From assembly GCA_963848295.1 (NCBI GenBank), contig CAWKDB010000011.1, positions 32,001 through 96,000 of the forward strand: 64,000 nucleotides of DNA, read 5' to 3'. The position numbers and the translations under genes were made by a program. Position 1 is the stretch's first letter. The number at the start of each line of letters is the position of its first letter. Below the pieces are notes generated by a model that had not been told where the DNA came from, searched no databases, and saw only the letters and a list, made by a program, of their open reading frames with translations. Shown here in pieces: positions 13,521 through 26,178 of this stretch. This DNA comes from an uncultured delta proteobacterium (GTDB lineage Bacteria > Myxococcota_A > Polyangia > Haliangiales > Haliangiaceae).

Positions 13521-13592
13521 GCCGCTGTAGCTCAGTGGTAGAGCAATGGTTTCGTAAACCATAGGTCCCCGGTTCAAACCCGGGCAGCGGCT
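13521..13592 (+). tRNA. tRNA-Thr(CGT)
   Basis: GCCGCTG/CAGCGGC acceptor stem, TAGCTCAGTGGTAGAGC D arm, ATGGT-TTCGTAA-ACCAT anticodon arm, GGTTCAAA T loop. Confidence 0.97.
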
Positions 13593-13683
13593 CGGAACAA
13601 GGTTGCTCGTGCGGCCGGCGACCTCGCATTAAGCTTCGATCGGGACGGGCCGCACTCGCGCAGCGCGATGTTACGGTGGCGCG

Positions 13684-14421: not shown

Positions 14422-14472
14422 TTCGTGACCCCAAGAGGAATCGAACCTCTGGCCTACGCTTTAGGAAAGCGC
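14422..14472. repeat. Left att site: duplicated 3' part of tRNA-Arg(CCT)
   Basis: TTCGTGACCCCAAGAGGAATCGAACCTCTGGCCTACGCTTTAGGAAAGCGC identical to 26101-26151. Confidence 0.97.
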
Positions 14473-14544
14473 GGGGCGCGCTCGTTCGGTTAGTTGCCAT
14501 GATATGGCACGGCATGTTTTCTCGACGGCGGCCGGTGGTTTATA

Positions 14545-14597
14545 GGTGACTAGACATGGCGTGATATGCGACGATTGGTGACTAGAATGGTGACTAA
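14545..14597 (+). promoter_or_regulatory. Putative integrase arm-type sites (TGGTGACTA repeats)
   Basis: GGTGACTAG 14545, TGGTGACTAG 14576, TGGTGACTAA 14588; same motif twice at the other end. Confidence 0.7.
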
Positions 14598-14618
14598 TCA
14601 CCGCCATCGGAGGTCGCC

Positions 14619-15959
14619 ATGAAGCGAAGGTTCAACGAGAAGTCGGTCGCCGCTCTCGCGCTGCCGCCGGGCAAGGCGCAGCTCGTCGTCTGGGACACCG
14701 AGGTCACCGGGTTTGGCCTCGTGATCGGCAAGGAAACGCGGACGTTCATCGCCGAAGACCGCATCGACGGCGTGAAGGTCCGCCGCAAGGTCGGGACACT
14801 CGGCCGCGTTCGCGACGACGGGTTGCCGTGGAGCGTCCAGCTCGCCCGAGAGCGCGCAAAGGAGCTGCTCGGCGGCATGGCGGGCGGCATGGCGCCGAAC
14901 GGCCTACGCACGCGCGCAGGCGGCCCGACGCTGCGCGAGGCGCTCGACTTCCACGTCTCCAAGATGGAGCGAGGCGAGAACCGCCGCGGTAAGGTTTGCT
15001 CCCCTCGATCGATCGCTACGCTGCGCGGGTGCGTCGAGCTCCATCTCGCTGACTACCTCGGTCGGCCCCTTCTCGGCCTCACTGCCGATGTGCTCGACGA
15101 CATTCGCATGGCGATCGAGCGAGAAGCCGAGCGGATGGGCGGATCGAATCCGGCGAACCCGCCGGGACGTGCGACGTCGAATCGCATTCTCGCCAACGTG
15201 TCGGCGATCTGGCGCTCGTGGCATCGACGGCATGGGCTTCCGGCATCAAACCCCACCGAGCGGTTGATCGCCGGCGCGCTCAAGCCGCGCAACAACCGGA
15301 TCGCGAATAGCGCCCTACCCGCGTGGCACGCGAAGGTGCTCGCGATGAAGAACCACGTCCGTCGCGACCTGCAGCTCGTCGCGCTGTTCACCGGCGTGCG
15401 AACCGACGGCGTGCGCAACCTGCGATGGGACGATATCAACTTCGACGAAGATCAGCTCCACGTCGCGCGAGCGAAGGGCGACCGACCGTACACACTGCCG
15501 TTGGTCGGAACCGTGCGCGCAATCCTCGAAGCGCGGCGTAAGGAGAACGCGAAGAAATTCAAGGAAGACGGTGGCGACCGCGGGTTCGTTTTCCCGACGT
15601 GGGCGCGTGACGGTAAGAAGGTGATCGCGACGGCCGAGGCGAAAGAGCGCTGTAATGTCCTCGACGCGCGCGGGAACCCGAAGCGCACCGAAGACGGCGA
15701 CTACGTGCGCGAGACGTACCTGCCGGGGATCCAGGCGACGCGTAAGACGTTCAACAGCGTGGCGATCGAGATTGGCGTACCGCTCGAAGCGCGTGAGGCG
15801 CTGATGAATCACGAGGGTCACGGCGTGAACGTGAAATCGTACGGCTTCCCGCAGAACTGGGACTACCTCGCCGAGCAAGCCGCTTTGATCGAGGCCGCGC
15901 TCTGGAAGCGGTTGAAGGCGGACCCGAAGGCGAAGCGCGCGAAGCTGCGTGCGGTATGA
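14619..15959 (+). CDS. int: Tyrosine recombinase/integrase with N-terminal arm-binding domain
   Basis: WDTEVTGFGL..GK..RTF arm domain; LFTGVR, AKGD, ATRKTF, LMNH, Y; SD GGAGG at 14609; adjacent to att. Confidence 0.92.
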   Translation: MKRRFNEKSVAALALPPGKAQLVVWDTEVTGFGLVIGKETRTFIAEDRIDGVKVRRKVGTLGRVRDDGLPWSVQLARERAKELLGGMAGGMAPNGLRTRAGGPTLREALDFHVSKMERGENRRGKVCSPRSIATLRGCVELHLADYLGRPLLGLTADVLDDIRMAIEREAERMGGSNPANPPGRATSNRILANVSAIWRSWHRRHGLPASNPTERLIAGALKPRNNRIANSALPAWHAKVLAMKNHVRRDLQLVALFTGVRTDGVRNLRWDDINFDEDQLHVARAKGDRPYTLPLVGTVRAILEARRKENAKKFKEDGGDRGFVFPTWARDGKKVIATAEAKERCNVLDARGNPKRTEDGDYVRETYLPGIQATRKTFNSVAIEIGVPLEAREALMNHEGHGVNVKSYGFPQNWDYLAEQAALIEAALWKRLKADPKAKRAKLRAV

Positions 15960-15978
15960 GCACATACCGCATCATGTC

Positions 15979-16006
15979 TTGACATATCGTCAATCCTTGT
16001 TAAGAT
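15979..16006 (+). promoter_or_regulatory. Sigma70-type promoter with palindromic operator for TA operon
   Basis: TTGACA-16 nt-TAAGAT with extended TG; inverted repeat TTGAC-N5-GTCAA (15979-15993) overlaps -35. Confidence 0.7.
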
Positions 16007-16016
16007 GGACTCGACG

Positions 16017-16298
16017 ATGAGGGAGCCGCTCCCACCGAGTACGGTCAAGCGGCTGCTCGTCGCCATCCTGGCGGGGGGCATACTCGCGTTCACGAAACAT
16101 GCGTACGAGGAGATGGCAAAGGACAACCTGACGGAGATCGACGTGCGCAACACGCTACGCGCCGGCACGGCGAGTCCGGGCGAGCTCGAGCGAGGCACCT
16201 ACCGCTACCGCGTCAGGACGTCGCGCATGGCCGCCGTCGTCGCGTTCCGGTCGGAGTCACATGCGGTCGTCGTCACGGCGTGGAGATTCAAGAGCTAG
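16017..16298 (+). CDS. DUF4258-family putative RNase toxin
   Basis: FTKHAYEEM..DNL...DV.N.L..G, YRYRV, VVVTAWR; precedes MqsA-like gene (alternative start 16005). Confidence 0.75.
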   Translation: MREPLPPSTVKRLLVAILAGGILAFTKHAYEEMAKDNLTEIDVRNTLRAGTASPGELERGTYRYRVRTSRMAAVVAFRSESHAVVVTAWRFKS

Positions 16299-16336
16299 AT
16301 CCCAAACAGCGGACGTAACCCGCGGAGGGAAACAAG

Positions 16337-16882
16337 ATGAAGTGCTTGCCGTGCGGTCACGCGATGACCACCAAACGAGAGAACGTGCCGTACACGGCCC
16401 TTCCGGGGGCCGTGCTGGTCGGCGTGCCTGTGAGCCGTTGCCCGAGCTGCGGCGAGTACGAGGTTGCCATCCCGGCGATCGACGAATTGAACCGCGTGCT
16501 CGCTGCCGCGGTGGTACGCAAGCCGACGCGACTGAGTGGCGGTGAGGTTCGTTTTCTGCGTACGTACCTCGGCTATTCGGGCGCGGACTTCGCCAAGTTG
16601 ATCGGCAGCGATCCGGCCACGGTCTCGCGATGGGAAGGCGACAAACAGCCGCTCGGCCATCACACTGATCTGCTCTTGCGCGCGCTCGTGGTGCTCGACA
16701 AGAAGGTCGACCAATACCCGATTACCAAATTCGCCGAGATCGGCGACGCCGCGGCCGCCACGCTGCGCTACGCGTTCAAGCCCGCGGCTAAGAAGTGGAA
16801 GCCGACGGAATTGCTCGGCCGCGTGAGCAGGCCGTTGTTAGCACTCGCGCCCGATCCCGCCGCTGTCAGGGTGTTGCGGTAG
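16337..16882 (+). CDS. MqsA/YgiT-type zinc-finger + XRE-HTH antitoxin
   Basis: CxxCG...CxxCGE then EVRFLRTYLGYS..DFAKLIG....TVSRWE. Confidence 0.88.
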   Translation: MKCLPCGHAMTTKRENVPYTALPGAVLVGVPVSRCPSCGEYEVAIPAIDELNRVLAAAVVRKPTRLSGGEVRFLRTYLGYSGADFAKLIGSDPATVSRWEGDKQPLGHHTDLLLRALVVLDKKVDQYPITKFAEIGDAAAATLRYAFKPAAKKWKPTELLGRVSRPLLALAPDPAAVRVLR

Positions 16883-16998
16883 GGTCTTCGTGTCGCACTC
16901 GGAGGTCTGATCCACCGACGAGCCGGTTCCAACTACCTCGCTGGGCCGGGCGCGGCACCCTTTCAAGGGTCGAGCGCCGAGGGTGAAGCGAGGCACCT

Positions 16999-17637
16999 TT
17001 GGCAGTTCTGAGACCGCCCGAACGACCCGACGCACGACAACCGATCGCTAACAGGCGAAGCGCGACGATCGAGACGCGGCATTGGTGGGACAAGTTCACG
17101 ATGGAGTGGGCGTGGCTCGCAGTGCTGCCAATGGCACAACGACTCGTCGACGAGCGCGCGCGGCACATTCGCGTGTGGAACTATCGCAACGAGCTCGCGG
17201 ACGCGTGCAACGCTGTCGCCGCGTTTCATGGTGACGCCGCGATCCGCGAGCCAGTATTCGTCGAGCTTCATCGCGAATTCCTCAAGGCGGATGCGGAGGC
17301 TGCCCCGTACACGGCGAAGCACTCTGGGCTCGAGACATTTCGCGAGCGAGCGTTCGACGAAGACGACACCGTCGAGAAAGCAGCGCGCACGTTGCTCGCC
17401 CAGCACGGCTTTAGCCCAGCGCGGCTTAGGCGTGGTGCCGAGCGCGACAAGACCGCAGAGCGGCACTCCGTGGCCCTGCGCGAGAAATACGAGGACGAGC
17501 GCGCCGTATGGCAGGGACTTCTTGGTGAGGTGACAGCCGGTCGGCGCTACAACGCGGGCGGCGTCCCATTGACGTCAGCACGAATCGAAAAAATGATCGT
17601 CGCGCTCGATGCAAAGCTAAACGCGCTGCCTGCCTAA
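16999..17637 (+). CDS. Hypothetical protein (element cargo; start may be 17101)
   Basis: Open frame with normal amino-acid composition between TA pair and alpA-like gene; no motif recognised. Confidence 0.55.
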   Translation: MAVLRPPERPDARQPIANRRSATIETRHWWDKFTMEWAWLAVLPMAQRLVDERARHIRVWNYRNELADACNAVAAFHGDAAIREPVFVELHREFLKADAEAAPYTAKHSGLETFRERAFDEDDTVEKAARTLLAQHGFSPARLRRGAERDKTAERHSVALREKYEDERAVWQGLLGEVTAGRRYNAGGVPLTSARIEKMIVALDAKLNALPA

Positions 17638-17721
17638 TCAAAAAGGCGGATAGCGAACCGGGGACAGATCTCGATCCTCGCTGTCCGTAGTTCGGATCAC
17701 GCGACTGCCCGACAAAAGGGC

Positions 17722-17952
17722 ATGTCCAAGCGTCAGACCGACGAAGAACCAACGCCGCTAGACCTCGAGCGAGCGGTCGACATCCATGAGGTGTCGGAGC
17801 TGCTCGGTCTCGCCGAGATCACGATCCGGCAACAGCACGCGCGCGGCGTGGGGCCGCGGGCATTCCGCATCGGCCGCGCGATCCGGTGGCGCCTTGCCGA
17901 CGTCCTCGCTTTCCGCGACGCGCGCATGGTCGGAAAGCGAGTGGCGCCGTGA
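17722..17952 (+). CDS. AlpA/excisionase-like HTH protein
   Basis: VDIHEVSELLGLAEITI......GPRAFRIGRAIRWRLADV. Confidence 0.85.
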   Translation: MSKRQTDEEPTPLDLERAVDIHEVSELLGLAEITIRQQHARGVGPRAFRIGRAIRWRLADVLAFRDARMVGKRVAP

Positions 17953-18158
17953 CCTCGCTCGGTCCGCTCGCGACGATGCTGATCGAGCGTTTGCGTTGCG
18001 CGCTTGCGCTCGTCGACGATCTTGATCCCGCCGAGCAAGATGCGGTGATCGGTGCGCTCGTCAGCGATCTGCGCGCTCGTCGCCCGGTTGCCGTCGCGCC
18101 GCTCGGGGTTCTTCCACCGCCGACGGATCCGATTCGAGACCCGCGAGGTGTGCGATGA
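17949..18158 (+). CDS. Small hypothetical protein
   Basis: GTGA and ATGA overlaps with both neighbours suggest translational coupling. Confidence 0.55.
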   Translation: MTSLGPLATMLIERLRCALALVDDLDPAEQDAVIGALVSDLRARRPVAVAPLGVLPPPTDPIRDPRGVR

Positions 18159-18631
18159 GCAACGACGACGATATCCCGTGGCCGACGCACACCGAGGTCG
18201 ACGAGATCAGTCGCCGCAACGTCGCCGAGGCGGTCGCCGAGGCGGAGCAAGAGCGAGCCGAGTTGATCGACGACGATATGGCCGAGCTGTCGATCGCCGT
18301 CGCCGCGCTCAAGGAGCTGCGCGAGATGGACATGTCGGCGTTTGCGCCGGAAACGCTTGTCGCGATCCTCAAACTCGCTCAAGAGACAATCGATGTCGCC
18401 GGTAGCGTGCGCCTCGATGGGCTGCGAGGACTCGGTGGGTGCCTCGAAGATCTGACACCACGCGAGATGTCTCGCCTCGACGTCTCGAGGCGAGACGAAT
18501 CGACGGCGCGTCAGATGGCCGAGATGCCCGATGATCTCTACGAGCAGGTCAAGACGGGCGCGATGAAGCCGCGCCGCGCACAGCAACTCATCAACCGCGC
18601 TCGCATCCGCGCGATGTACGGGACGCCGTGA
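18155..18631 (+). CDS. Hypothetical acidic helical protein
   Basis: SD GAGG upstream, overlapping start/stop with neighbours. Confidence 0.6.
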   Translation: MSNDDDIPWPTHTEVDEISRRNVAEAVAEAEQERAELIDDDMAELSIAVAALKELREMDMSAFAPETLVAILKLAQETIDVAGSVRLDGLRGLGGCLEDLTPREMSRLDVSRRDESTARQMAEMPDDLYEQVKTGAMKPRRAQQLINRARIRAMYGTP

Positions 18632-19683
18632 CCATCAACGTCGACGCCATCCGCGCGGCGCTCGCGCCGATCGCGATCTTCGAGTCGCAAGGCGTCGACG
18701 TTCTCGATCGCGGCGCTGAGCTGCGCACGAACCTCTGTCCGATCTGCGGCGAGCGTTCGCGCCGCGCGGTCAAGGTGAACACTGAAACCGGCGCGTGGAA
18801 GGATCACGCGAAGGGTTGCAAGGGCGACATCTTCCGGTTGCTCGCGGGCTACGCCGGGCTCGACGTTGCTCGCGAGTATCCGCGCGTCCTCGAGCTTGCG
18901 GCGCAGATCGCCGGCATCGCGAATATCACCAGCCCTGAGATCGAGAAGCTCGTTGCCGAGCGGCGTCGCACGTCCGCCGAGCGGCGTGAACGCAACGAAG
19001 TCGCGCGTGCCGCAGCTCGAGCTCGCATGCCCGGGGTCTGGGCCTCGCTCGCGACCCGTCACGCCGGCGGCGAGGCGTACCTGCGCGACGATCGCGGCAT
19101 CAACCCTGCGACGTTGCGCGATCACGGCGACGTCGTGCGGTACTCGTCGCGCGGCGAGCCCGCGGTAGCGCTTCGCGACCTCGAGAGCGGCGACGTCGTC
19201 GGCGTGCAGTACCGCCGCGTGCTGCCCGGCGATCCGAAGACCCCAGCTGAGACCGGCTCCCAGTTCGCCGGCTCGTGTCTCTACGGGCGGATCGCCGACC
19301 TCGATCCGGACGGCGTCGACGTTGCGGTTGTCGTCGAAGGTCTCGCCGACACGCTCGCGGCGCGGCTGGCGTTCCCGGGCTGCGCGATCTTCGGCGCGCC
19401 TGGTGCTGGCCAGCTCGAGACGGTTACGGCGGCGGTTGCCGCGCGCGTCGCCGAGTGTCGCGGTTGGCTGCTGATCGTGCCGGACGACGACGACGCAGGC
19501 GCGGACCACACAGCGGCGGCGATCGTCGCCGCGCGAGACGCTGGCCTCACTCTCGCTGCCGACAACGCCGGACTCGAAGGCGCATCGACGGTTCGACTCG
19601 TCGACCTCGGCGAGCACCACGATCTTGCCGATGCATGGCGCCATCCCGGTTGGTGCTGGCAGTGGCCACGGAGAACGACATGA
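18628..19683 (+). CDS. Primase (Zn-binding domain + Toprim)
   Basis: CPIC...WKDHAKGC.GD Zn-finger-like; VVVEGLAD, PDDDDAG, DLAD Toprim motifs. Confidence 0.8.
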   Translation: MTINVDAIRAALAPIAIFESQGVDVLDRGAELRTNLCPICGERSRRAVKVNTETGAWKDHAKGCKGDIFRLLAGYAGLDVAREYPRVLELAAQIAGIANITSPEIEKLVAERRRTSAERRERNEVARAAARARMPGVWASLATRHAGGEAYLRDDRGINPATLRDHGDVVRYSSRGEPAVALRDLESGDVVGVQYRRVLPGDPKTPAETGSQFAGSCLYGRIADLDPDGVDVAVVVEGLADTLAARLAFPGCAIFGAPGAGQLETVTAAVAARVAECRGWLLIVPDDDDAGADHTAAAIVAARDAGLTLAADNAGLEGASTVRLVDLGEHHDLADAWRHPGWCWQWPRRTT

Positions 19684-20999
19684 GTGGAGCGAAGCGATCG
19701 CGTGCGCGTCTCGAAGTCATCGAGGCCGACGACCGGCCGACGATCACGCCTCAGCAACGCGACGAGGACTTCCGACGCGACGACAAAGGGCGGATCTACA
19801 CGACGCAAGCCAACATCGCGCTTGCGATGAGAAAGCTCGGTGTGACCGTTCGCTACGATCGGTTCGCCGGCCACGAGCTCGTCGCTGGTCTGCCGGGATT
19901 CGGACCGCGCCTCGACGACGCCGCGATGAACCGACTGCGCCTCGCGATCGACTCCGAATTCACGTTTCGGATCACAAAGGATTTCTTCTACGACGTGGTC
20001 TCTGATCGCGCGCGGCAGAATTCATTTCACCCCGTCGTCGAATACCTCGCCGCTCGCACGTGGGACAAGGTCGAGCGGATCTCCACATGGCTTAGCGACT
20101 ACGCCAGCGCCGAGAATTCGCCTTACGTGCGCGCAGTGTCGCGACTGAGTCTCGTCGCAGCCGCGCGGCGCGTGCGTGACCCAGGCTGCAAATTCGACGA
20201 GATGCTCGTGCTCGAGTCGGCGCAGGGTACGAACAAGTCGACCGCGCTGCGCACGCTCGCGGTGCGTGACGAGTGGTTCGTCGACGATCTCCCGCTCGGC
20301 GCCGACACGAAACGGCTCATGGAGGCGACCGCCGGCCGCTGGATCGTCGAAGCCGGCGAACTCAAGGGCATGAGCAAAGGCGATGTCGCGACGCTCAAGG
20401 CGTACCTGTCGCGCCAGACCGATCAAGCTCGGCTTTCATACGGTCGCAAAGAAACGATCGCGCCACGGCAATTCGTCATCATTGGCACGACGAACGAGAC
20501 CGAGGGCTACCTCAAAGACTCGACCGGCAACCGTCGATTCTGGCCAATCCGCGTCAAAGCGTTCGACCTCGACAAGTTACGGCGCGACCGCGATCAACTC
20601 TGGGCTGAGGCTGCGAAGGCCGAAGCCGACGGCGAGAGTATCCGGCTCGATCCGGCGCTGTATCAGCATGCCGAGGTCGAGCAAGACGCGCGGCGCGCCG
20701 ATGACCCGATGGTGATCTTGCTGAGCGAGCACCTCGGCGACGTGTGCGGCAAGTTGCGGACGCTCGATGCCTGGAAGGTTATCGGCGTCGAGCCCGGCAA
20801 GGCGACGCAAGATCAGAACGTCCGCCTCGGCGCAGCCATGCGCGAGCTCGGGTGGGAACGCAAGCAACGGCGGTTCAACGGCGGCGTGGAGTGGGCCTAC
20901 GTCCGAGGATCGGACGCCGAGCGCGAAGTACCGATCGAGGTTGAAGTCGAAATCGGCTTCGACAAGCAACAGCGAGTGAAGGTGCGCCGCCATGCGTAA
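19680..20999 (+). CDS. VapE (virulence-associated E) family P-loop ATPase/helicase
   Basis: FHPV..YL, PGCKFDEMLVLESAQGTNKST, WIVEAGEL, R.SYGR, GTTN..GYLKDSTGNRRFWPI. Confidence 0.9.
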   Translation: MSGAKRSRARLEVIEADDRPTITPQQRDEDFRRDDKGRIYTTQANIALAMRKLGVTVRYDRFAGHELVAGLPGFGPRLDDAAMNRLRLAIDSEFTFRITKDFFYDVVSDRARQNSFHPVVEYLAARTWDKVERISTWLSDYASAENSPYVRAVSRLSLVAAARRVRDPGCKFDEMLVLESAQGTNKSTALRTLAVRDEWFVDDLPLGADTKRLMEATAGRWIVEAGELKGMSKGDVATLKAYLSRQTDQARLSYGRKETIAPRQFVIIGTTNETEGYLKDSTGNRRFWPIRVKAFDLDKLRRDRDQLWAEAAKAEADGESIRLDPALYQHAEVEQDARRADDPMVILLSEHLGDVCGKLRTLDAWKVIGVEPGKATQDQNVRLGAAMRELGWERKQRRFNGGVEWAYVRGSDAEREVPIEVEVEIGFDKQQRVKVRRHA

Positions 21000-21175
21000 C
21001 CCCGTAACCCCCGTCAAGGGCCGTCACCCCTATCTCTACGAGTGCCCGCGAGCGGTTCTTAGCAGCTGCTATTTCTTTCTTTCTAAAAAAGGGGAGTTAC
21101 GGGGATTACGGAGCGGATCGTCGACGGGGAACGCCGTAACCAGCGGGGGTACGGCGCCCGGGTACGGGGATTACG
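20995..21175. repeat. Putative replication origin: inverted CGTAAC/GTTACG-like iterons around an AT-rich core
   Basis: CGTAACCC x2 (20995, 21003), AT tract 21070-21090, GTTACG/ATTACG/GTACGG copies 21096-21175. Confidence 0.7.
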
Positions 21176-21257
21176 CCGGATACCTCACAGCAGCAGAGCA
21201 GCAGGACCGCGGTGTAAATCGACCCGCCCAGCCGTCGCCCTCAAGCTGCAAAGCTGT

Positions 21258-21692
21258 ATGAGCGAACAGCGTCGTAAGCCGCCAAGCCGACTCGGCATGG
21301 GTCCGACGCCGGGCTCGTTCACCGCAGGCGATCCGCGGATCAACCGCAACGGTCGCCCGCGCAGCGGACTGGCGTTCGCCGAGCGCGTGCGCGAGCGGAT
21401 CGATCCCGACATGATGATCGACCTCGCGATGCGCGTCGCCGAAGACACGGGGATGACGCCTGCGGAGCGTTTGGCTGCGCTGTGGCCGCTGATCGACCGC
21501 GGATTCATCAAACCACCGGCGCAGCTCGAAGCGCACGTCACAGGCAACGCTACGCCGTCCTATGACCTATCGAAGCTGCCGCTCGACGAGCGCCGCGCGT
21601 TGCTCGAGAAGCTGCGCGCGTTGCGCACCACCTCACCAGACGAAGACCCGCGGTTACCGGAACCAGCGGTCTCCGACGACGTTAGCGAATAG
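21258..21692 (+). CDS. Terminase small subunit-like (DUF5681-type)
   Basis: SFTAGDPRINRNGRPRS resembles F..G.SGNP.GRP motif; C-terminal DLSKLPLDER; upstream of terL. Confidence 0.65.
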   Translation: MSEQRRKPPSRLGMGPTPGSFTAGDPRINRNGRPRSGLAFAERVRERIDPDMMIDLAMRVAEDTGMTPAERLAALWPLIDRGFIKPPAQLEAHVTGNATPSYDLSKLPLDERRALLEKLRALRTTSPDEDPRLPEPAVSDDVSE

Positions 21693-21750
21693 TCACCACG
21701 ATAGTCGCCACACGAACCCGCAACGACTTCCAACCCAGCGAGAACACACG

Positions 21751-22062
21751 ATGTCCGTTGTTAAAGCCGCACCCCGTGACGCGCGCGCCAATCACTGGCG
21801 CCCTGACGTCGACGGCGCAACCGGCATCACACGCCGGCGCTACCGCGGCCGACTGCGGCGTGGCCACCCGACCGCAGCGAGCGACGACGCGGTCGACGTG
21901 CGGCTCGCGATCGCCGAGCTCCAGGCCGCGCACGAGATGCTCGTGCGCTGTGACGACGCGTCCGACATCGAGCGCGAGCAGCTCAAGCGCACCGCCTTCG
22001 CCAAGATCGCGCTCGCTGGGCGCGCCGTTGACGAGGTGACGTTGCGCCGGGGTGTCCGATGA
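21751..22062 (+). CDS. Hypothetical protein
   Basis: ORF in operon, ATGA overlap with next gene. Confidence 0.5.
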   Translation: MSVVKAAPRDARANHWRPDVDGATGITRRRYRGRLRRGHPTAASDDAVDVRLAIAELQAAHEMLVRCDDASDIEREQLKRTAFAKIALAGRAVDEVTLRRGVR

Positions 22063-22307
22063 CGTTCCCTGTCACCATCGAGCGTGACGAGCGCGGCTGT
22101 CTGTTCCGCATGTCCGCCAAGGCTTGGGCCGCGGGTTGGCACATCGGTGACCGCGTGATCGTCGAGCTCGACAGCGGCGACGACGCAGGGGACGTGGTCG
22201 TGTGCGAGCTCGAGTGCGGTCCCGCCGACGAGCCGATCGCGCGGCCGTTCGCACCGCACGGGATCAAGCGCACAACCGGCGTCGTCCGGCAACCGAGGGC
22301 CGCATGA
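22059..22307 (+). CDS. Hypothetical protein
   Basis: Short beta-rich ORF coupled to upstream gene. Confidence 0.45.
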   Translation: MTFPVTIERDERGCLFRMSAKAWAAGWHIGDRVIVELDSGDDAGDVVVCELECGPADEPIARPFAPHGIKRTTGVVRQPRAA

Positions 22308-22362
22308 TCGCCGCTCGTCTGCCGCGACTGCTCGCCGCGCTGGCGTTCTTGTTGTTGTCGAG

Positions 22363-23913
22363 GTGCGTGTGAGCGACGACCTCGCACAGCTCGAGCGCGA
22401 GCTGTGGAATAGCTTGTGGCGCGACGATCCGCACAAGCGGTTTCTCATGTTCGTCGAGCGCTACTGGCCGGTCGTTACCGGTACGGCGTACGTCGCGAAC
22501 CGCGTCACGACCGCGATCATCGCCGCGCTGCAAGACGTTCTCGACGGTACGACGAGCCGGCTCGTCATCGCCAAGCCGCCAGGCTGCGGCGTGTCGACAC
22601 TGCTCGTGCTGTTCGAGGGCTGTCGCACCGCGATCGACCCGTCGTGGCGCACGATCGCCGCGAGCCACAGCTACGAGCTCGCCGCGACCGCGAGTCGTCG
22701 CGTCCGGCGCTTGGTGACGTCGCCCGAGTTTCGCCAGAGCTTCGAGGTCACGCTGCGCGACGACGCGGCGCAGGTCTCGCTCTGGGAGACGTCCGCCGGC
22801 GGTCACTTCATCGCGGTCGGTCGCGAGAGCCACGTCACCGGCCGCCGCGCCAACGAGATCGTGTGCGACGACTTGAACGCCGCCGCGGATCGTCACAGCA
22901 AGGCCGCACTCGAGCACGCCTGGACGTTCTTCGCCGAGACGCTGTCGACGCGCATCGACAACGACCGCAGCGCGATGGTCGTCTGTGCGCAGCGGACCGC
23001 CGTCGACGACGTGCCCGGCCGACTCGTGGAGCAGGGTGGTTGGACCGTGCTCGAGCTGCCGGCCGAAGACGAGCACGGCGAGCCGACGGCGCCTAACGTG
23101 CTGCCCCGCGAACGCCTCGACGCCTTGAAAGCGCAGATCGGCTCGCTCGCCTACGCGACGCAGTACCTGCAACGCCCGAGCGACGACAGCGAGGCCGTGA
23201 TCCGCCGCGTGTGGTGGCGGTTCTACCGCGCGCCGCACGTCTCCGAGCAAGCGCCGCGACCGGCGGGTTGCGACACCGAGCAACCGGCGATTGCATTGCC
23301 CGAGACGTTCGATCGCGTCGTGATCGCGTGCGACTTGACGTTCGGCTCGCTGACCGGCGACTACGCGGCGGTGCAAGCGTGGGCCGCGAAGGGCGGTGCG
23401 CGCTACCTGCTCGAACAGTGGCGCGCGCGGGCTGGATTCGAGGCGCAGGTCTCGGCGATCGCCGCGATCGCGTCACGCTATCCAGGCTGCAAGGTGCTGA
23501 TCGAGCGAGCGGCGAACGGCGCCGCCGTGATCGAGCAGCTGCGCACCGTCATCCCCGGCGTCGTCGCGGTGCGCCCGCAAGGCCCGAAGCTCGCGCGCAT
23601 CGCCGCCATGGCGCCGACGGTCGAAAGCGGCGCCTGTCTGCTGCCGCTCGGCGCGTCGTGGCTAGGCGACTTCGTCGAAGAGCTAGCCGGCGCGACGAAG
23701 CACGACGACATGGCGGACGCCGCCGCGTACGCGATCGCCGACCTGACGCGCGACTCGATCGACAACGAAGAGCCGTTCGGCGGCTACCTGTTCACCGCCG
23801 ACCAGGGCGACGCGCCGCCGGCTCCCACCGCGTCGGACGATCGCCACCACAGCGCCTTCGATTCCTTTCGTTCGCGCCGCTGCCTCGTCGGCGGCTTCGT
23901 CCCCGACGAGTAA
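22363..23913 (+). CDS. terL: Phage terminase large subunit (degenerate Walker A)
   Basis: RLVI..PP, ASHS..LA, TGRRANEIVCDD, YATQYLQRP, ACDLTF..DY, LIERAANG, K.ARI..ESG, HDDMADA nuclease motif. Confidence 0.9.
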   Translation: MRVSDDLAQLERELWNSLWRDDPHKRFLMFVERYWPVVTGTAYVANRVTTAIIAALQDVLDGTTSRLVIAKPPGCGVSTLLVLFEGCRTAIDPSWRTIAASHSYELAATASRRVRRLVTSPEFRQSFEVTLRDDAAQVSLWETSAGGHFIAVGRESHVTGRRANEIVCDDLNAAADRHSKAALEHAWTFFAETLSTRIDNDRSAMVVCAQRTAVDDVPGRLVEQGGWTVLELPAEDEHGEPTAPNVLPRERLDALKAQIGSLAYATQYLQRPSDDSEAVIRRVWWRFYRAPHVSEQAPRPAGCDTEQPAIALPETFDRVVIACDLTFGSLTGDYAAVQAWAAKGGARYLLEQWRARAGFEAQVSAIAAIASRYPGCKVLIERAANGAAVIEQLRTVIPGVVAVRPQGPKLARIAAMAPTVESGACLLPLGASWLGDFVEELAGATKHDDMADAAAYAIADLTRDSIDNEEPFGGYLFTADQGDAPPAPTASDDRHHSAFDSFRSRRCLVGGFVPDE

Positions 23914-24072
23914 ATCGACCCACCTAGCCAACCTTGCAAACCTAGTCTCACCGCCAATGTTATCCGCCACCATTTCTGACGTCGCGCCCACAACCCAAGC
24001 TCTTGGCGGTGCTTGCGTTGGCAGACTCCTGCGCTCGGGCGCGACGTCACTTCTTGTTTCAGGAGCACCGTC

Positions 24073-25719
24073 ATGAAGAAGAGCCCGTTTTCCCTCCGTC
24101 TGAAATCCCTCCGGTTCTTGTCCGCCGTTGACAGCCCGGCGCAGTCCGCGATCGCGCACGCGCTGATCTTCAAGCGCGACAGCGGCGAGGTCACGCTCAC
24201 CGCGAAGGTCGCGAAGCTGTCCGACGAGCTCGGGCTCGTGTTCGGCTACGCGTTCGCGTCATCGCTCGATGGCGGCACGACACCGTACGTCGACGCGCAG
24301 AACGACGCGATCGATCCGGACTTCCTGAAAGCCGCGATGGACTTCGTCGCAGGCGGCGGCGCGACCGACATAAACCACGACGGTCACCAAGACGGCCGCG
24401 TGATCTTTGCGTGGCCGTTGCTGCCCGACATCAACATGGCGCTCGGCATCGAGTCGAAGACCGTCGGGCTCGCCGTGGCGATCAAGCCGAGCGCGGCGAC
24501 GTTCGCGAAGTTCAAGAGCGGCGAGCTCACCGGGTTCAGCATCGAGGGCACCGGCGCTCGCGAGCCGCTCGCCAAGAGCGACGTCACGAAGCAGCCGAAG
24601 CACGTCGTGTGTTCGAAGTGTGAGAAGTCCACCGCGCCGCTGTCGTACTGCTCGAACTGCGGCAGCGCGCTGAGCGGTGACGAGAAGCCGCCGGTGGCCG
24701 CGTCTGGCGCGAGCGCCGACGAGCTCGAGGACCAGGCCGACAAGGCGATCGCCCACAAGCTGTGGGTCGCGAAGCAACTCGCCGAGCACCTCGACTACCT
24801 CGACGGCATCGCGGCTAGCAGCGGCGTCGACGCGGCGCGCACCGTCGCCGAGCGCAACGTGAGCAGCGTCGGCAACTGGGGTGCGGTGTGGCTCGAGAAG
24901 CGCGGCATCGCGTCGCAGGCTGGCGACGCGTCGTTCGCTCAGATCGTCAAGGCCGCGTTCGCCGTCAACGAAACGGCTCGCAAGGGCCACCGCGAGAAGG
25001 TCGCCGCGGCCCAAAGGACGTTCGACGGCGCGGTCGCCGAGCTCGCCACCAAGCGCGGCATCACGAACGACGCCGCGCGGGCCATCGCGATGAACTTCCC
25101 GACAATCAAGGCGCTGCACGCAGACTGGCAGGAGCTCGACCAGTCGGTGCCCGAGGGCCTCGTCGACATCGCTCAGCCGTACACGAAGGCCATCGACGAC
25201 AAGATCGGCGCACTGCAACGCGAGCGCGTCTCCCACATCGAGGCGACCGCCGCGGCTCGAAACCTCGGCATTTACGAAGCCGAGCTCGCCTTGGTGAAAG
25301 GCAAGACGGCCGACGCGGCGCACGGTCGCGAGTCTCAGCTCGGCCGACTCGAGCGCGAGATCGCCGAAGCGCAGGACGAGCGGTCGACGATTCGCACGGG
25401 CATCACCGAACGCGTCGCGGCCCTGTCGCCGCATCACATCGCCACCGATGCCGCGCAGTCCGCGCTGTTGGCCAAGCGCGCCGAGCTCGCGACCATCGTG
25501 AACGAGAGCCCGGGCGGCCGGCTGTTGCGCAAGGCCGTCGAGCGGTTCCAGAAAGAGCACAAGGTCCCGACGTACGCGCAAGCGATGGCCCGCGCGCTCG
25601 TCGACGACGAGGTCGTGCGCGAGCTGTGGCCGATGCGCGACGAGATGCCGGCAACCGCCGACATCGTCGCGGCACGCAAGGCGCTGGCCGAGCTCGACCG
25701 CGAGCAGACGAGCGCGTAA
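24073..25719 (+). CDS. XkdF-like prohead serine protease fused to Zn ribbon and long helical scaffold-like region
   Basis: LSAVDSPAQ, GLVFGYA, VDAQND.I, INHDG, FKSGELTGFSIEG; CSKC..CSNCG; SD AGGAG at 24061. Confidence 0.8.
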   Translation: MKKSPFSLRLKSLRFLSAVDSPAQSAIAHALIFKRDSGEVTLTAKVAKLSDELGLVFGYAFASSLDGGTTPYVDAQNDAIDPDFLKAAMDFVAGGGATDINHDGHQDGRVIFAWPLLPDINMALGIESKTVGLAVAIKPSAATFAKFKSGELTGFSIEGTGAREPLAKSDVTKQPKHVVCSKCEKSTAPLSYCSNCGSALSGDEKPPVAASGASADELEDQADKAIAHKLWVAKQLAEHLDYLDGIAASSGVDAARTVAERNVSSVGNWGAVWLEKRGIASQAGDASFAQIVKAAFAVNETARKGHREKVAAAQRTFDGAVAELATKRGITNDAARAIAMNFPTIKALHADWQELDQSVPEGLVDIAQPYTKAIDDKIGALQRERVSHIEATAAARNLGIYEAELALVKGKTADAAHGRESQLGRLEREIAEAQDERSTIRTGITERVAALSPHHIATDAAQSALLAKRAELATIVNESPGGRLLRKAVERFQKEHKVPTYAQAMARALVDDEVVRELWPMRDEMPATADIVAARKALAELDREQTSA

Positions 25720-25940
25720 TGCGCGACGAGTGGAGCATCGGTTTCGGCGACGCGGTCGACCTGCGCCACTCGGTCGCCGCACGCGAGCGGCTGCTCGTCA
25801 CCGTTGCTCCCTCGTGGTCGCGCGAGCGGCTCGATGGCTTCCTGCACGCGCACGAGCTCGCGCTCAACGCCCAGCGGTGCACGTGCTCGAGCTGTCCGCT
25901 TCACTCATCTTCGGGGACCGCAGGGCCTGACCTCCTGTAG
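25719..25940 (+). CDS. Small hypothetical protein
   Basis: TAATG overlap with upstream gene; Cys/His-rich C-terminus. Confidence 0.4.
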   Translation: MRDEWSIGFGDAVDLRHSVAARERLLVTVAPSWSRERLDGFLHAHELALNAQRCTCSSCPLHSSSGTAGPDLL

Positions 25941-26049
25941 CGCGTGAATGGAAGGCTCGCTCCCCAACTTTTCGACGGACGGCGAGTAGCGTTGCTACAA
26001 CGCGGCCGTCGAGCAAGCGCGCAAGACGAAGCGATGACCGACGTCGGGT

Positions 26050-26070
26050 TGGTGACTAACTGGTGACTAG
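26050..26070 (+). promoter_or_regulatory. Putative integrase arm-type sites
   Basis: TGGTGACTAA C TGGTGACTAG tandem, 30 bp from att. Confidence 0.7.
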
Positions 26071-26100
26071 CGATACGTCGCCAGTAAATTCTTCAATCAT

Positions 26101-26151
26101 TTCGTGACCCCAAGAGGAATCGAACCTCTGGCCTACGCTTTAGGAAAGCGC
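26101..26151. repeat. Right att site within tRNA-Arg
   Basis: Identical to 14422-14472. Confidence 0.97.
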
Positions 26152-26178
26152 CGCTCTATCCGGCTGAGCTATGGGGTC
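26105..26178 (-). tRNA. tRNA-Arg(CCT)
   Basis: GACCCCA/TGGGGTC acceptor, anticodon loop TTCCTAA, GGTTCGATTCC T arm. Confidence 0.95.

Follow-up and report, generated by a model that had tools for sequence, protein, structure and literature searches.

Within a 64,000-nucleotide stretch of the genome of an uncultured deltaproteobacterium (GenBank assembly GCA_963848295.1, contig CAWKDB010000011.1, positions 32,001 to 96,000; hereafter the window), an element of about 11.7 kb is integrated at positions 14422 to 26151 and carries a large terminase gene (terL) together with a small-terminase-like (terS-like) gene. We consider it most probably (at roughly 0.6) a helper-dependent phage satellite whose own terminase would package element DNA into helper procapsids, as judged from its attachment (att) sites, an empty site in a relative, its gene set, the recurrence of the type, and the conserved catalytic residues of the large terminase subunit (TerL). 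A first-pass annotation of the window had preferred a helper-dependent satellite to a decayed prophage, and this is still the best-supported reading.

We infer every dynamic step of the mechanism, mobilization by a helper included. Upon helper induction or infection, the element would excise and replicate. Its TerS-like protein and TerL would recognize the element's own DNA, and TerL would dock on the portal of the helper, which would be a temperate siphophage of the same host genus and would supply tails and lysis, while a toxin-antitoxin (TA) pair would stabilize the element. The weakest step, doubtful when taken by itself, is that the element's protease-scaffold protein, with a helper-type C-terminal motif present twice, would compete with the helper scaffold and thereby shrink or divert heads; competition of this kind is described for CpmB and Rcm in Staphylococcus aureus pathogenicity islands (SaPIs) in the available text of PMC12409344.

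An intact element in a tRNA-Arg(CCT) gene

The element is bounded by an exact 51-nt direct repeat (14422 to 14472 and 26101 to 26151; spacing, 11,679 bp), just as first annotated, and a genome-wide blastn search returned these two exact copies and no others. One end of the repeat is the first base of the tRNA anticodon stem and the other lies 4 nt beyond the discriminator base, again as the first-pass annotation had it, and its right copy makes up the 3′ half of a tRNA-Arg(CCT) gene (26104 to 26178, minus strand). The 8-mer GGTGACTA, of which the entire 7.78-Mb genome has 56 copies, occurs at 14545, 14577, and 14589 inside the left end and at 26051 and 26062 inside the right end, and these repeats are likely integrase arm-type sites. 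The proposal that an empty site be sought was borne out in a genome of the same genus (G112, locus L225), where both flanking genes adjoin one single tRNA copy; they are 99% (kinase) and 85% identical to those beside the element, and none of the other tRNA loci among the 28 examined had both. Given the 99% identity of the flanking kinase, the vacancy in this relative suggests that the element was gained or lost recently. The GC content of the element is 66.4%, versus 68.2% for the genome.

A codon-trained caller placed 14 genes between the att copies, all on the plus strand and 87% coding, in agreement with the approximately 14 co-oriented genes annotated earlier, and we added a 15th small open reading frame (ORF) on the basis of 56 to 61% homologues in two related elements. 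The ORFs are uninterrupted, and the element is real and intact. Scans of its proteins against Pfam, PHROG, and NCBIfam profiles upheld the first-pass identification of the integrase, the antitoxin of the TA pair, the AlpA-like protein, the primase, VapE, and TerL, whereas the terS-like gene could be identified through homologues only. The features are as follows:

14422..14472, unstranded: att core, copy of the tRNA-Arg(CCT) 3′ half; exact 51-nt repeat, site empty in G112
14545..14596, plus: three GGTGACTA repeats, likely arm-type sites
14619..15959, plus: tyrosine integrase, 446 aa (PF00589, phrog_1)
16005..16298, plus: DUF4258 protein (PF14076 above cutoff)
16337..16882, plus: MqsA-type zinc-finger/helix-turn-helix (HTH) antitoxin (TIGR03830 above cutoff)
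17101..17637, plus: 178-aa protein (no Pfam, PHROG, or NCBIfam match)
17722..17952, plus: AlpA/excisionase-like HTH protein (phrog_66, E = 1.6e-7)
17949..18158, plus: small ORF common to related elements (56 to 61% tblastn matches in L098 and L077)
18155..18631, plus: 158-aa protein (no Pfam, PHROG, or NCBIfam match)
18628..19683, plus: primase, Toprim (phrog_510, E = 4.6e-16)
19680..20999, plus: VapE-type helicase (PF05272, E = 1.9e-69; phrog_256)
20995..21257, unstranded: putative replication origin, with GTAAC/GTTAC/ATTAC repeats flanking an A/T-rich run
21258..21692, plus: terS-like gene of a DUF5681-related family (by homologues)
21751..22062, plus: 103-aa protein (called gene; no significant match)
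22059..22307, plus: 82-aa protein (called gene; no match)
22369..23913, plus: terminase large subunit, 514 aa, with lysine-shifted Walker A (phrog_38, E = 1.6e-78; TIGR01630)
24073..25719, plus: XkdF-type head protease fused to an all-helical scaffold-like module, 548 aa
25719..25940, plus: 73-aa ORF, weakly coding (called gene; no match)
26051..26069, plus: two GGTGACTA repeats, likely arm-type sites
26101..26151, unstranded: att core inside the intact tRNA; exact 51-nt repeat
26104..26178, minus: tRNA-Arg(CCT), integration target

Residues R261, K286, R375, and H398 of the integrase are invariant among 7 aligned integrases, and the first catalytic H is replaced by Q. A sigma-70-like site (15979 to 16006) lies at the start of the DUF4258 gene, whose product we take to be the likely toxin of a type II TA pair. 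The AlpA-like protein matched HTH_17 below the cutoff and had no AlpA match in Pfam. Four of the element's nine GTAAC/GTTAC copies fall within 20995 to 21257, a likely replication origin as judged from these repeats. The terS-like protein clusters with the product of the gene before terL in 5 phage stretches, and 3 of 24 aligned members of its family match the TerS profile phrog_2538, with no profile match for the window copy; a literature search found no paper on DUF5681 as TerS.

No portal or capsid gene was detected in the element (PHROG scan; 82 tblastn queries plus a capsid hidden Markov model [HMM]), nor were head-tail adaptors or connectors among its proteins (Pfam, PHROG, and NCBIfam) or any tail or lysis gene inside the att boundaries (Pfam and PHROG), so that the portal, capsid, tail, and lysis genes of a complete prophage were not found there. 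Likewise, Sid, Psu, delta, and the core genes of PLE, the Vibrio cholerae satellite, had no match in the element (Pfam, PHROG, and NCBIfam).

Further loci of this genome are as follows. A tRNA-Thr(CGT) gene, a type targeted by four related elements, lies at 13521 to 13593 of the window, 0.8 kb from the left end of the element. A second att-bounded island of 9,745 bp (L001:3983-13748, G000:C10), with a 21-bp repeat, occupies a tRNA-Ala(TGC) gene and encodes a 31%-identical integrase and an HTH protein, with no packaging genes. A second MqsA-like gene is found near a tRNA-Asn gene and an integrase-like fragment (L002:13769-15022).

The terminase motor and the protease-scaffold protein

The TerL of the element has V at the canonical Walker A lysine (K75) and a lysine at position 69 (K69). 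Among 109 aligned TerL homologues, 103 have K75, none of them together with a lysine six residues upstream, versus 6 of the 6 that are devoid of K75. The notion that K75V marks a dead motor was therefore rejected, the lysine having shifted six residues upstream; lambda TerL (KSARVGYS) has the same lysine spacing according to Table 1 of PMC6379665. In addition, the Walker B and nuclease acidic residues D167, D168, D322, D447, and D450 are invariant in all 109 sequences. Because the lysine shift compensates for the loss of K75 (6/6 versus 0/103), the motor looks maintained, and the alignment suggests that it is under constraint.

The gene 3′ of terL, first annotated as an XkdF protease, deserves that name in its first third, which is all that PF14550 matches (21.9 bits, below the Pfam cutoff of 24); the rest of the 548-aa protein, about 370 aa, is scaffold-like and predicted to be all-helical, for which reason a capsid identity was rejected. 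The first 170 residues are at most 75% identical to phage-type protease-scaffolds, H102 and S156 of the XkdF domain are invariant, and the protease family differs from the HK97 type. The XkdF protease-scaffold genes of phages have the portal/minor-head block on one side and the capsid gene on the other. For the remaining 369 residues of the element protein, only 7 relatives turned up among 1.84 billion representatives, three of them without a protease. This module is common to element-type proteins and absent from phage scaffolds of known context, and four module-bearing proteins carry proteases from four places in the protease tree. Its relatives include P0260 to P0263, three of which are protease-less; the contigs of P0260, P0261, and P0263 equal in size those of the TerL relatives P0044, P0104, and P0148, which suggests that the two sets are linked. 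A Foldseek search of the 548-aa model (predicted template modeling score, 0.39) against the PDB gave no match at an E value of ≤0.001.

An HMM of the scaffold C-terminal motif (48 training ends, two wrong ones having been removed in a second round) found one terminal copy per phage scaffold of known context and at least two copies in the element-type proteins of G033, G021, G091, and L098, as well as in P0005, whose context is unknown; since the second-round HMM contains element copies, only the score for the window is noncircular. In the window protein, the first copy (residues 480 to 520) scored 19.7 bits versus a maximum of 5.8 in 300 shuffles, and the second (approximately 313 to 349) reached 94.7% in a profile comparison, versus 0.1 to 0.2% for two control segments. 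A third candidate (approximately 372 to 425) scored 6.9% and was not counted. The position of the motif and its likeness to CpmB and Rcm, as presented in PMC12409344, suggest that it may bind coat protein. A predicted complex of residues 474 to 530 with the capsid protein of a candidate helper (L054) scored 0.28 against a mark of 0.32 and was used neither way.

Related elements and competing explanations

A search for TerL gave matches in 26 of the 90 genomes of the genus and in 30 of 137 same-family genomes (tallies that count two unpublished genomes, used nowhere else), and the source names on the homologues are Kofleriaceae; the host, a myxobacterium, is labeled accordingly. Viral and metagenome relatives were found by alignment scans, single-protein scans having returned none. 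We inspected the neighborhoods of most TerL matches, plus the metagenome and IMG/VR matches, and delimited 14 att-bounded elements, the present one included, of 9,471 to 16,983 bp (median, approximately 12.5 kb) with tRNA-derived repeats of 17 to 54 bp at several tRNA types. Twelve are in 11 genomes of the host genus, one is in another family of the class, and one is on a metagenome contig; in two cases the contig ends at the att repeat. All 14 encode an integrase and TerL (the latter by construction, since the set was selected on TerL), 11 a member of the TerS-like cluster, and 12 a recognizable primase/helicase of varying type. Portal and capsid genes were found in none of the 14 by the 82 tblastn queries and capsid HMM, which matched 12 of 13 control phage stretches, many of these being self-matches.

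The first-pass annotation had asked for relatives of the same gene order and size. The size recurs in the 13 further elements (9.5 to 17 kb), but order and gene set do not, the recurring parts being int, an HTH gene, primase/helicase, terS-like, and terL. The genes 3′ of terL differ per element and include head proteases of two families, tail-tip/hub proteins, a tape measure, and neck proteins. A small MerR-like HTH family, often encoded by the first gene 3′ of terL, is present in the element-type loci L024, L031, L040, L073, L076, L080, and L084 and in none of the phage stretches. The annotation had also reasoned that a satellite would be refuted if close homologues occurred in full prophages only. 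Contrary to that outcome, the 13 further elements have homologous TerL and are devoid of portal and capsid; TerL homologues thus do occur outside full prophages, although portal-bearing phages have them too.

Several relatives merit individual mention. L098:2668-18544 is a 15.8-kb element at the same tRNA-Arg(CCT) site (integrase 47%, TerS-like 60%, and TerL 48% identical); its cargo comprises genes for tape-measure and truncated tail-tip proteins and for a 145-aa protein that has no protease but two scaffold motifs. Tandem islands share one tRNA at L028:2540-18610, which has three att copies, and at L076, where a TerL element adjoins a second att-bounded island. The entire contig L080:1-15693 starts and ends with a 43-bp tRNA repeat, for which either excision or a break in the assembly at the repeats could account. 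At L085:12033-13828, terL is present as two ORFs with overlapping stop and start, possibly a working two-gene TerL. The IMG/VR contig L144:1-4021 encodes a TerL 55% identical to that of the window; next come a 159-aa gene and, without an intervening portal gene, a major capsid gene. It may be a capsid-bearing variant, but the shortness of the contig prevents a decision. We excluded L264, which is probably a chimeric contig end (its GC fraction jumps from 0.33 to 0.68, and terL is broken).

Phylogenies of TerL (FastTree and a 39-row maximum-likelihood IQ-TREE, omitting 11 near-duplicate rows and rows with <330 profile positions, G091 among them) spread the small elements over three lineages. 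The lineage of the window comprises 18 loci: 13 without a portal after terL (7 of them att-bounded), 3 portal-bearing phages, and 2 lacking context. A single satellite-exclusive clade was rejected on both trees, since the phages L164, L075, and L097 nest inside this lineage, and portal-less L099 is sister to L164. Nested phages and three lineages together indicate a recurring architecture and not one clade; on these trees, the element type is an architecture that trades genes with phages or has arisen several times.

Such trees would also fit prophages that were reduced repeatedly, with portal, capsid, and tail lost by deletion and the remnants immobile or moving only by chance, an explanation that we regard as unlikely. 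The nested phages and the position of L099 favor it, as do leftover virion genes that differ per element and are partly truncated, interruptions of terL in 2 of the 14 elements (stops in G091, a split gene in G089), and an upstream order of replication genes, terS, and terL that resembles that of phages. Against it, all 14 elements are without portal and capsid yet keep integrase, att sites, and TerL within a narrow size band; the window ORFs are uninterrupted and densely coding; the scaffold-like module is shared by element-type proteins and not by phage scaffolds of known context; and the site is empty in a close relative, as expected of recent gain or loss.

The same findings bear on the satellite reading from the other side. 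Nonmonophyly of the type, phages nested in its TerL lineage, and interrupted terL genes all weigh against a helper-dependent satellite, and decay could leave the same single, partly truncated virion genes after terL. The six lysine-shifted TerLs form one branch and thus represent a single event, the TerS identity comes from family and position only, and coat binding by the scaffold motif draws on position and analogy. The host genome, at 85% completeness, yielded neither a portal or capsid gene nor a second TerL when queried with 245 phage proteins (tblastn) and in five family searches, two of which matched no control genome. No complete element was found among the IMG/VR matches. One sequencing run, which may be the source sample itself, contained 36% of the element's words, and its Logan contigs have matches both within and beyond the element at a depth of approximately 2 to 5; among the pieces listed, they show no joint and bridge neither att site, which is uninformative on excision, and no circle or virion was seen in these low-depth contigs.

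It is improbable, in our estimation, that the element is an antiphage decoy island, in which TerL and the scaffold mimic, along with the solitary tail or neck genes that relatives carry, would act as dominant-negative poisons of incoming phage assembly, with spread secondary or by other means. The cargo is indeed made up of single pieces of the assembly machinery, among them truncated tail-tip proteins and scaffold repeats without a protease, and assembly-blocking defenses have been published (PMC10884400 and 10.1101/2025.02.27.640495, as far as their accessible text goes). However, a poison needs no ATPase or nuclease residues, yet none of these positions varies and the altered Walker A motif is compensated for, and replication genes and a terS-like gene are retained beside terL. 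We give little credence to an integrative element moved without specific packaging (by generalized or lateral transduction, vesicles, or conjugative mobilization), its terminase being a passenger or packaging host DNA beside the site: the tRNA-Ala island of the same genome, with a related integrase and no packaging genes, and the travel of tycheposons in capsids and vesicles (available text of 10.1101/2020.12.28.424599) fit this view, whereas TerL in 14/14 and TerS-like in 11/14 elements (a set selected on TerL, with TerL-less relatives uncounted) and the lack of any relaxase or conjugation match in general Pfam, PHROG, and NCBIfam scans of the element do not.

Comparison with described satellites and implications

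If the element is a helper-dependent satellite, candidate helpers are phages with a terS-terL-portal-protease/scaffold-capsid-tail arrangement, which are present in IMG/VR and in the host genus; their capsid family is found in 5 of 90 genomes of the genus. Temperate siphophages of the Kofleriaceae (L053 to L056, L063, L065, and L164) share homologous TerS-like, TerL (25 to 37% identical), and XkdF protease-scaffold proteins with the element; unlike it, they also encode portal, capsid, neck, and tail proteins, and they carry the scaffold motif only once. They are candidate helpers and gene donors.

Among described satellites, Gram-negative phage-inducible chromosomal islands (PICIs), as outlined in the available text of PMC10085698, resemble the element in their approximately 10-kb size, tRNA att site, integrase, AlpA-like regulator, primase-helicase, TerS-like gene, one-strand layout, and accessory TA pair beside int. 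They differ in relying on the helper TerL and typically having no other structural genes, whereas the element has its own TerL and protease, and in having a capsid-type morphogenesis gene, in place of which the element has a protease-scaffold fusion. Of the PICI markers described there, the integrase with att sites, the AlpA-type regulator, and the primase-replicase module are present; a small terminase is supported by family and position; and for capsid morphogenesis the element offers a scaffold-like candidate and no capsid homologue. The same source, from which the SatelliteFinder model of PICIs is taken, lists TerL as a marker of capsid-forming PICIs (cf-PICIs). The median size of cf-PICIs is 14 kb. 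The element shares with cf-PICIs its own TerS-like protein and TerL, a head protease, and a similar size, but not the major capsid protein, portal, and head-tail adaptor or connector described for them. Lacking capsid, portal, and connectors, it cannot make its own head; we class it as PICI-like and not as a cf-PICI.

CpmB and Rcm of SaPIs are, in the text of PMC12409344 at hand, likewise helical proteins that share a C-terminal motif with the helper scaffold; in the element, by contrast, the motif is repeated and protease-fused. SaPIs also borrow TerL, whereas the element carries it. PLE is a helper-capsid-dependent satellite competing at packaging, a dependence that we presume for the element, but within the available text of 10.1101/2024.04.22.590561 it has no TerL and manipulates that of its helper. 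PICI-like tycheposons (10.1101/2020.12.28.424599, in the text available) are similarly tRNA-integrated, with a modular integrase, variable primase/helicase, and a packaging gene; they are described with terS or a capsid gene, however, and the main text does not contain "terL" or "large terminase." Targeted literature searches, with subscription journals mostly outside their reach and supplementary catalogues that could hold such elements, found no published description of this satellite type, nor did they find a satellite report for the host genus.

Described satellites thus either borrow TerL from the helper (PICI, PLE, and P4) or bring it together with their own capsid and portal (cf-PICI). 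Tentatively, the present type could be an undescribed satellite class, common in Kofleriaceae, that inverts the cf-PICI bargain by carrying a whole packaging motor and no shell. Its TerL would be swapped onto the helper portal, and helper heads would be captured or resized by a multivalent scaffold with a repeated coat-binding motif and repeatedly recruited helper proteases; relatives would fill the same slot with single virion genes of other kinds, and the class would repeatedly originate and swap genes with full phages. Because TerL without a portal would, in a satellite, imply a foreign motor docking on the helper portal, TerL-portal specificity becomes directly testable. The type is frequent in the host genus, with 12 att-bounded copies in 11 of 91 genomes, and to these the present copy adds proof of an empty site, a compensated Walker A, and a repeated scaffold motif, a candidate new way of redirecting capsids. 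The full phages nested among the elements offer material for studying the origin of satellites from phages, and if an undescribed class is indeed at hand, phage-to-satellite transitions would here be caught in progress.

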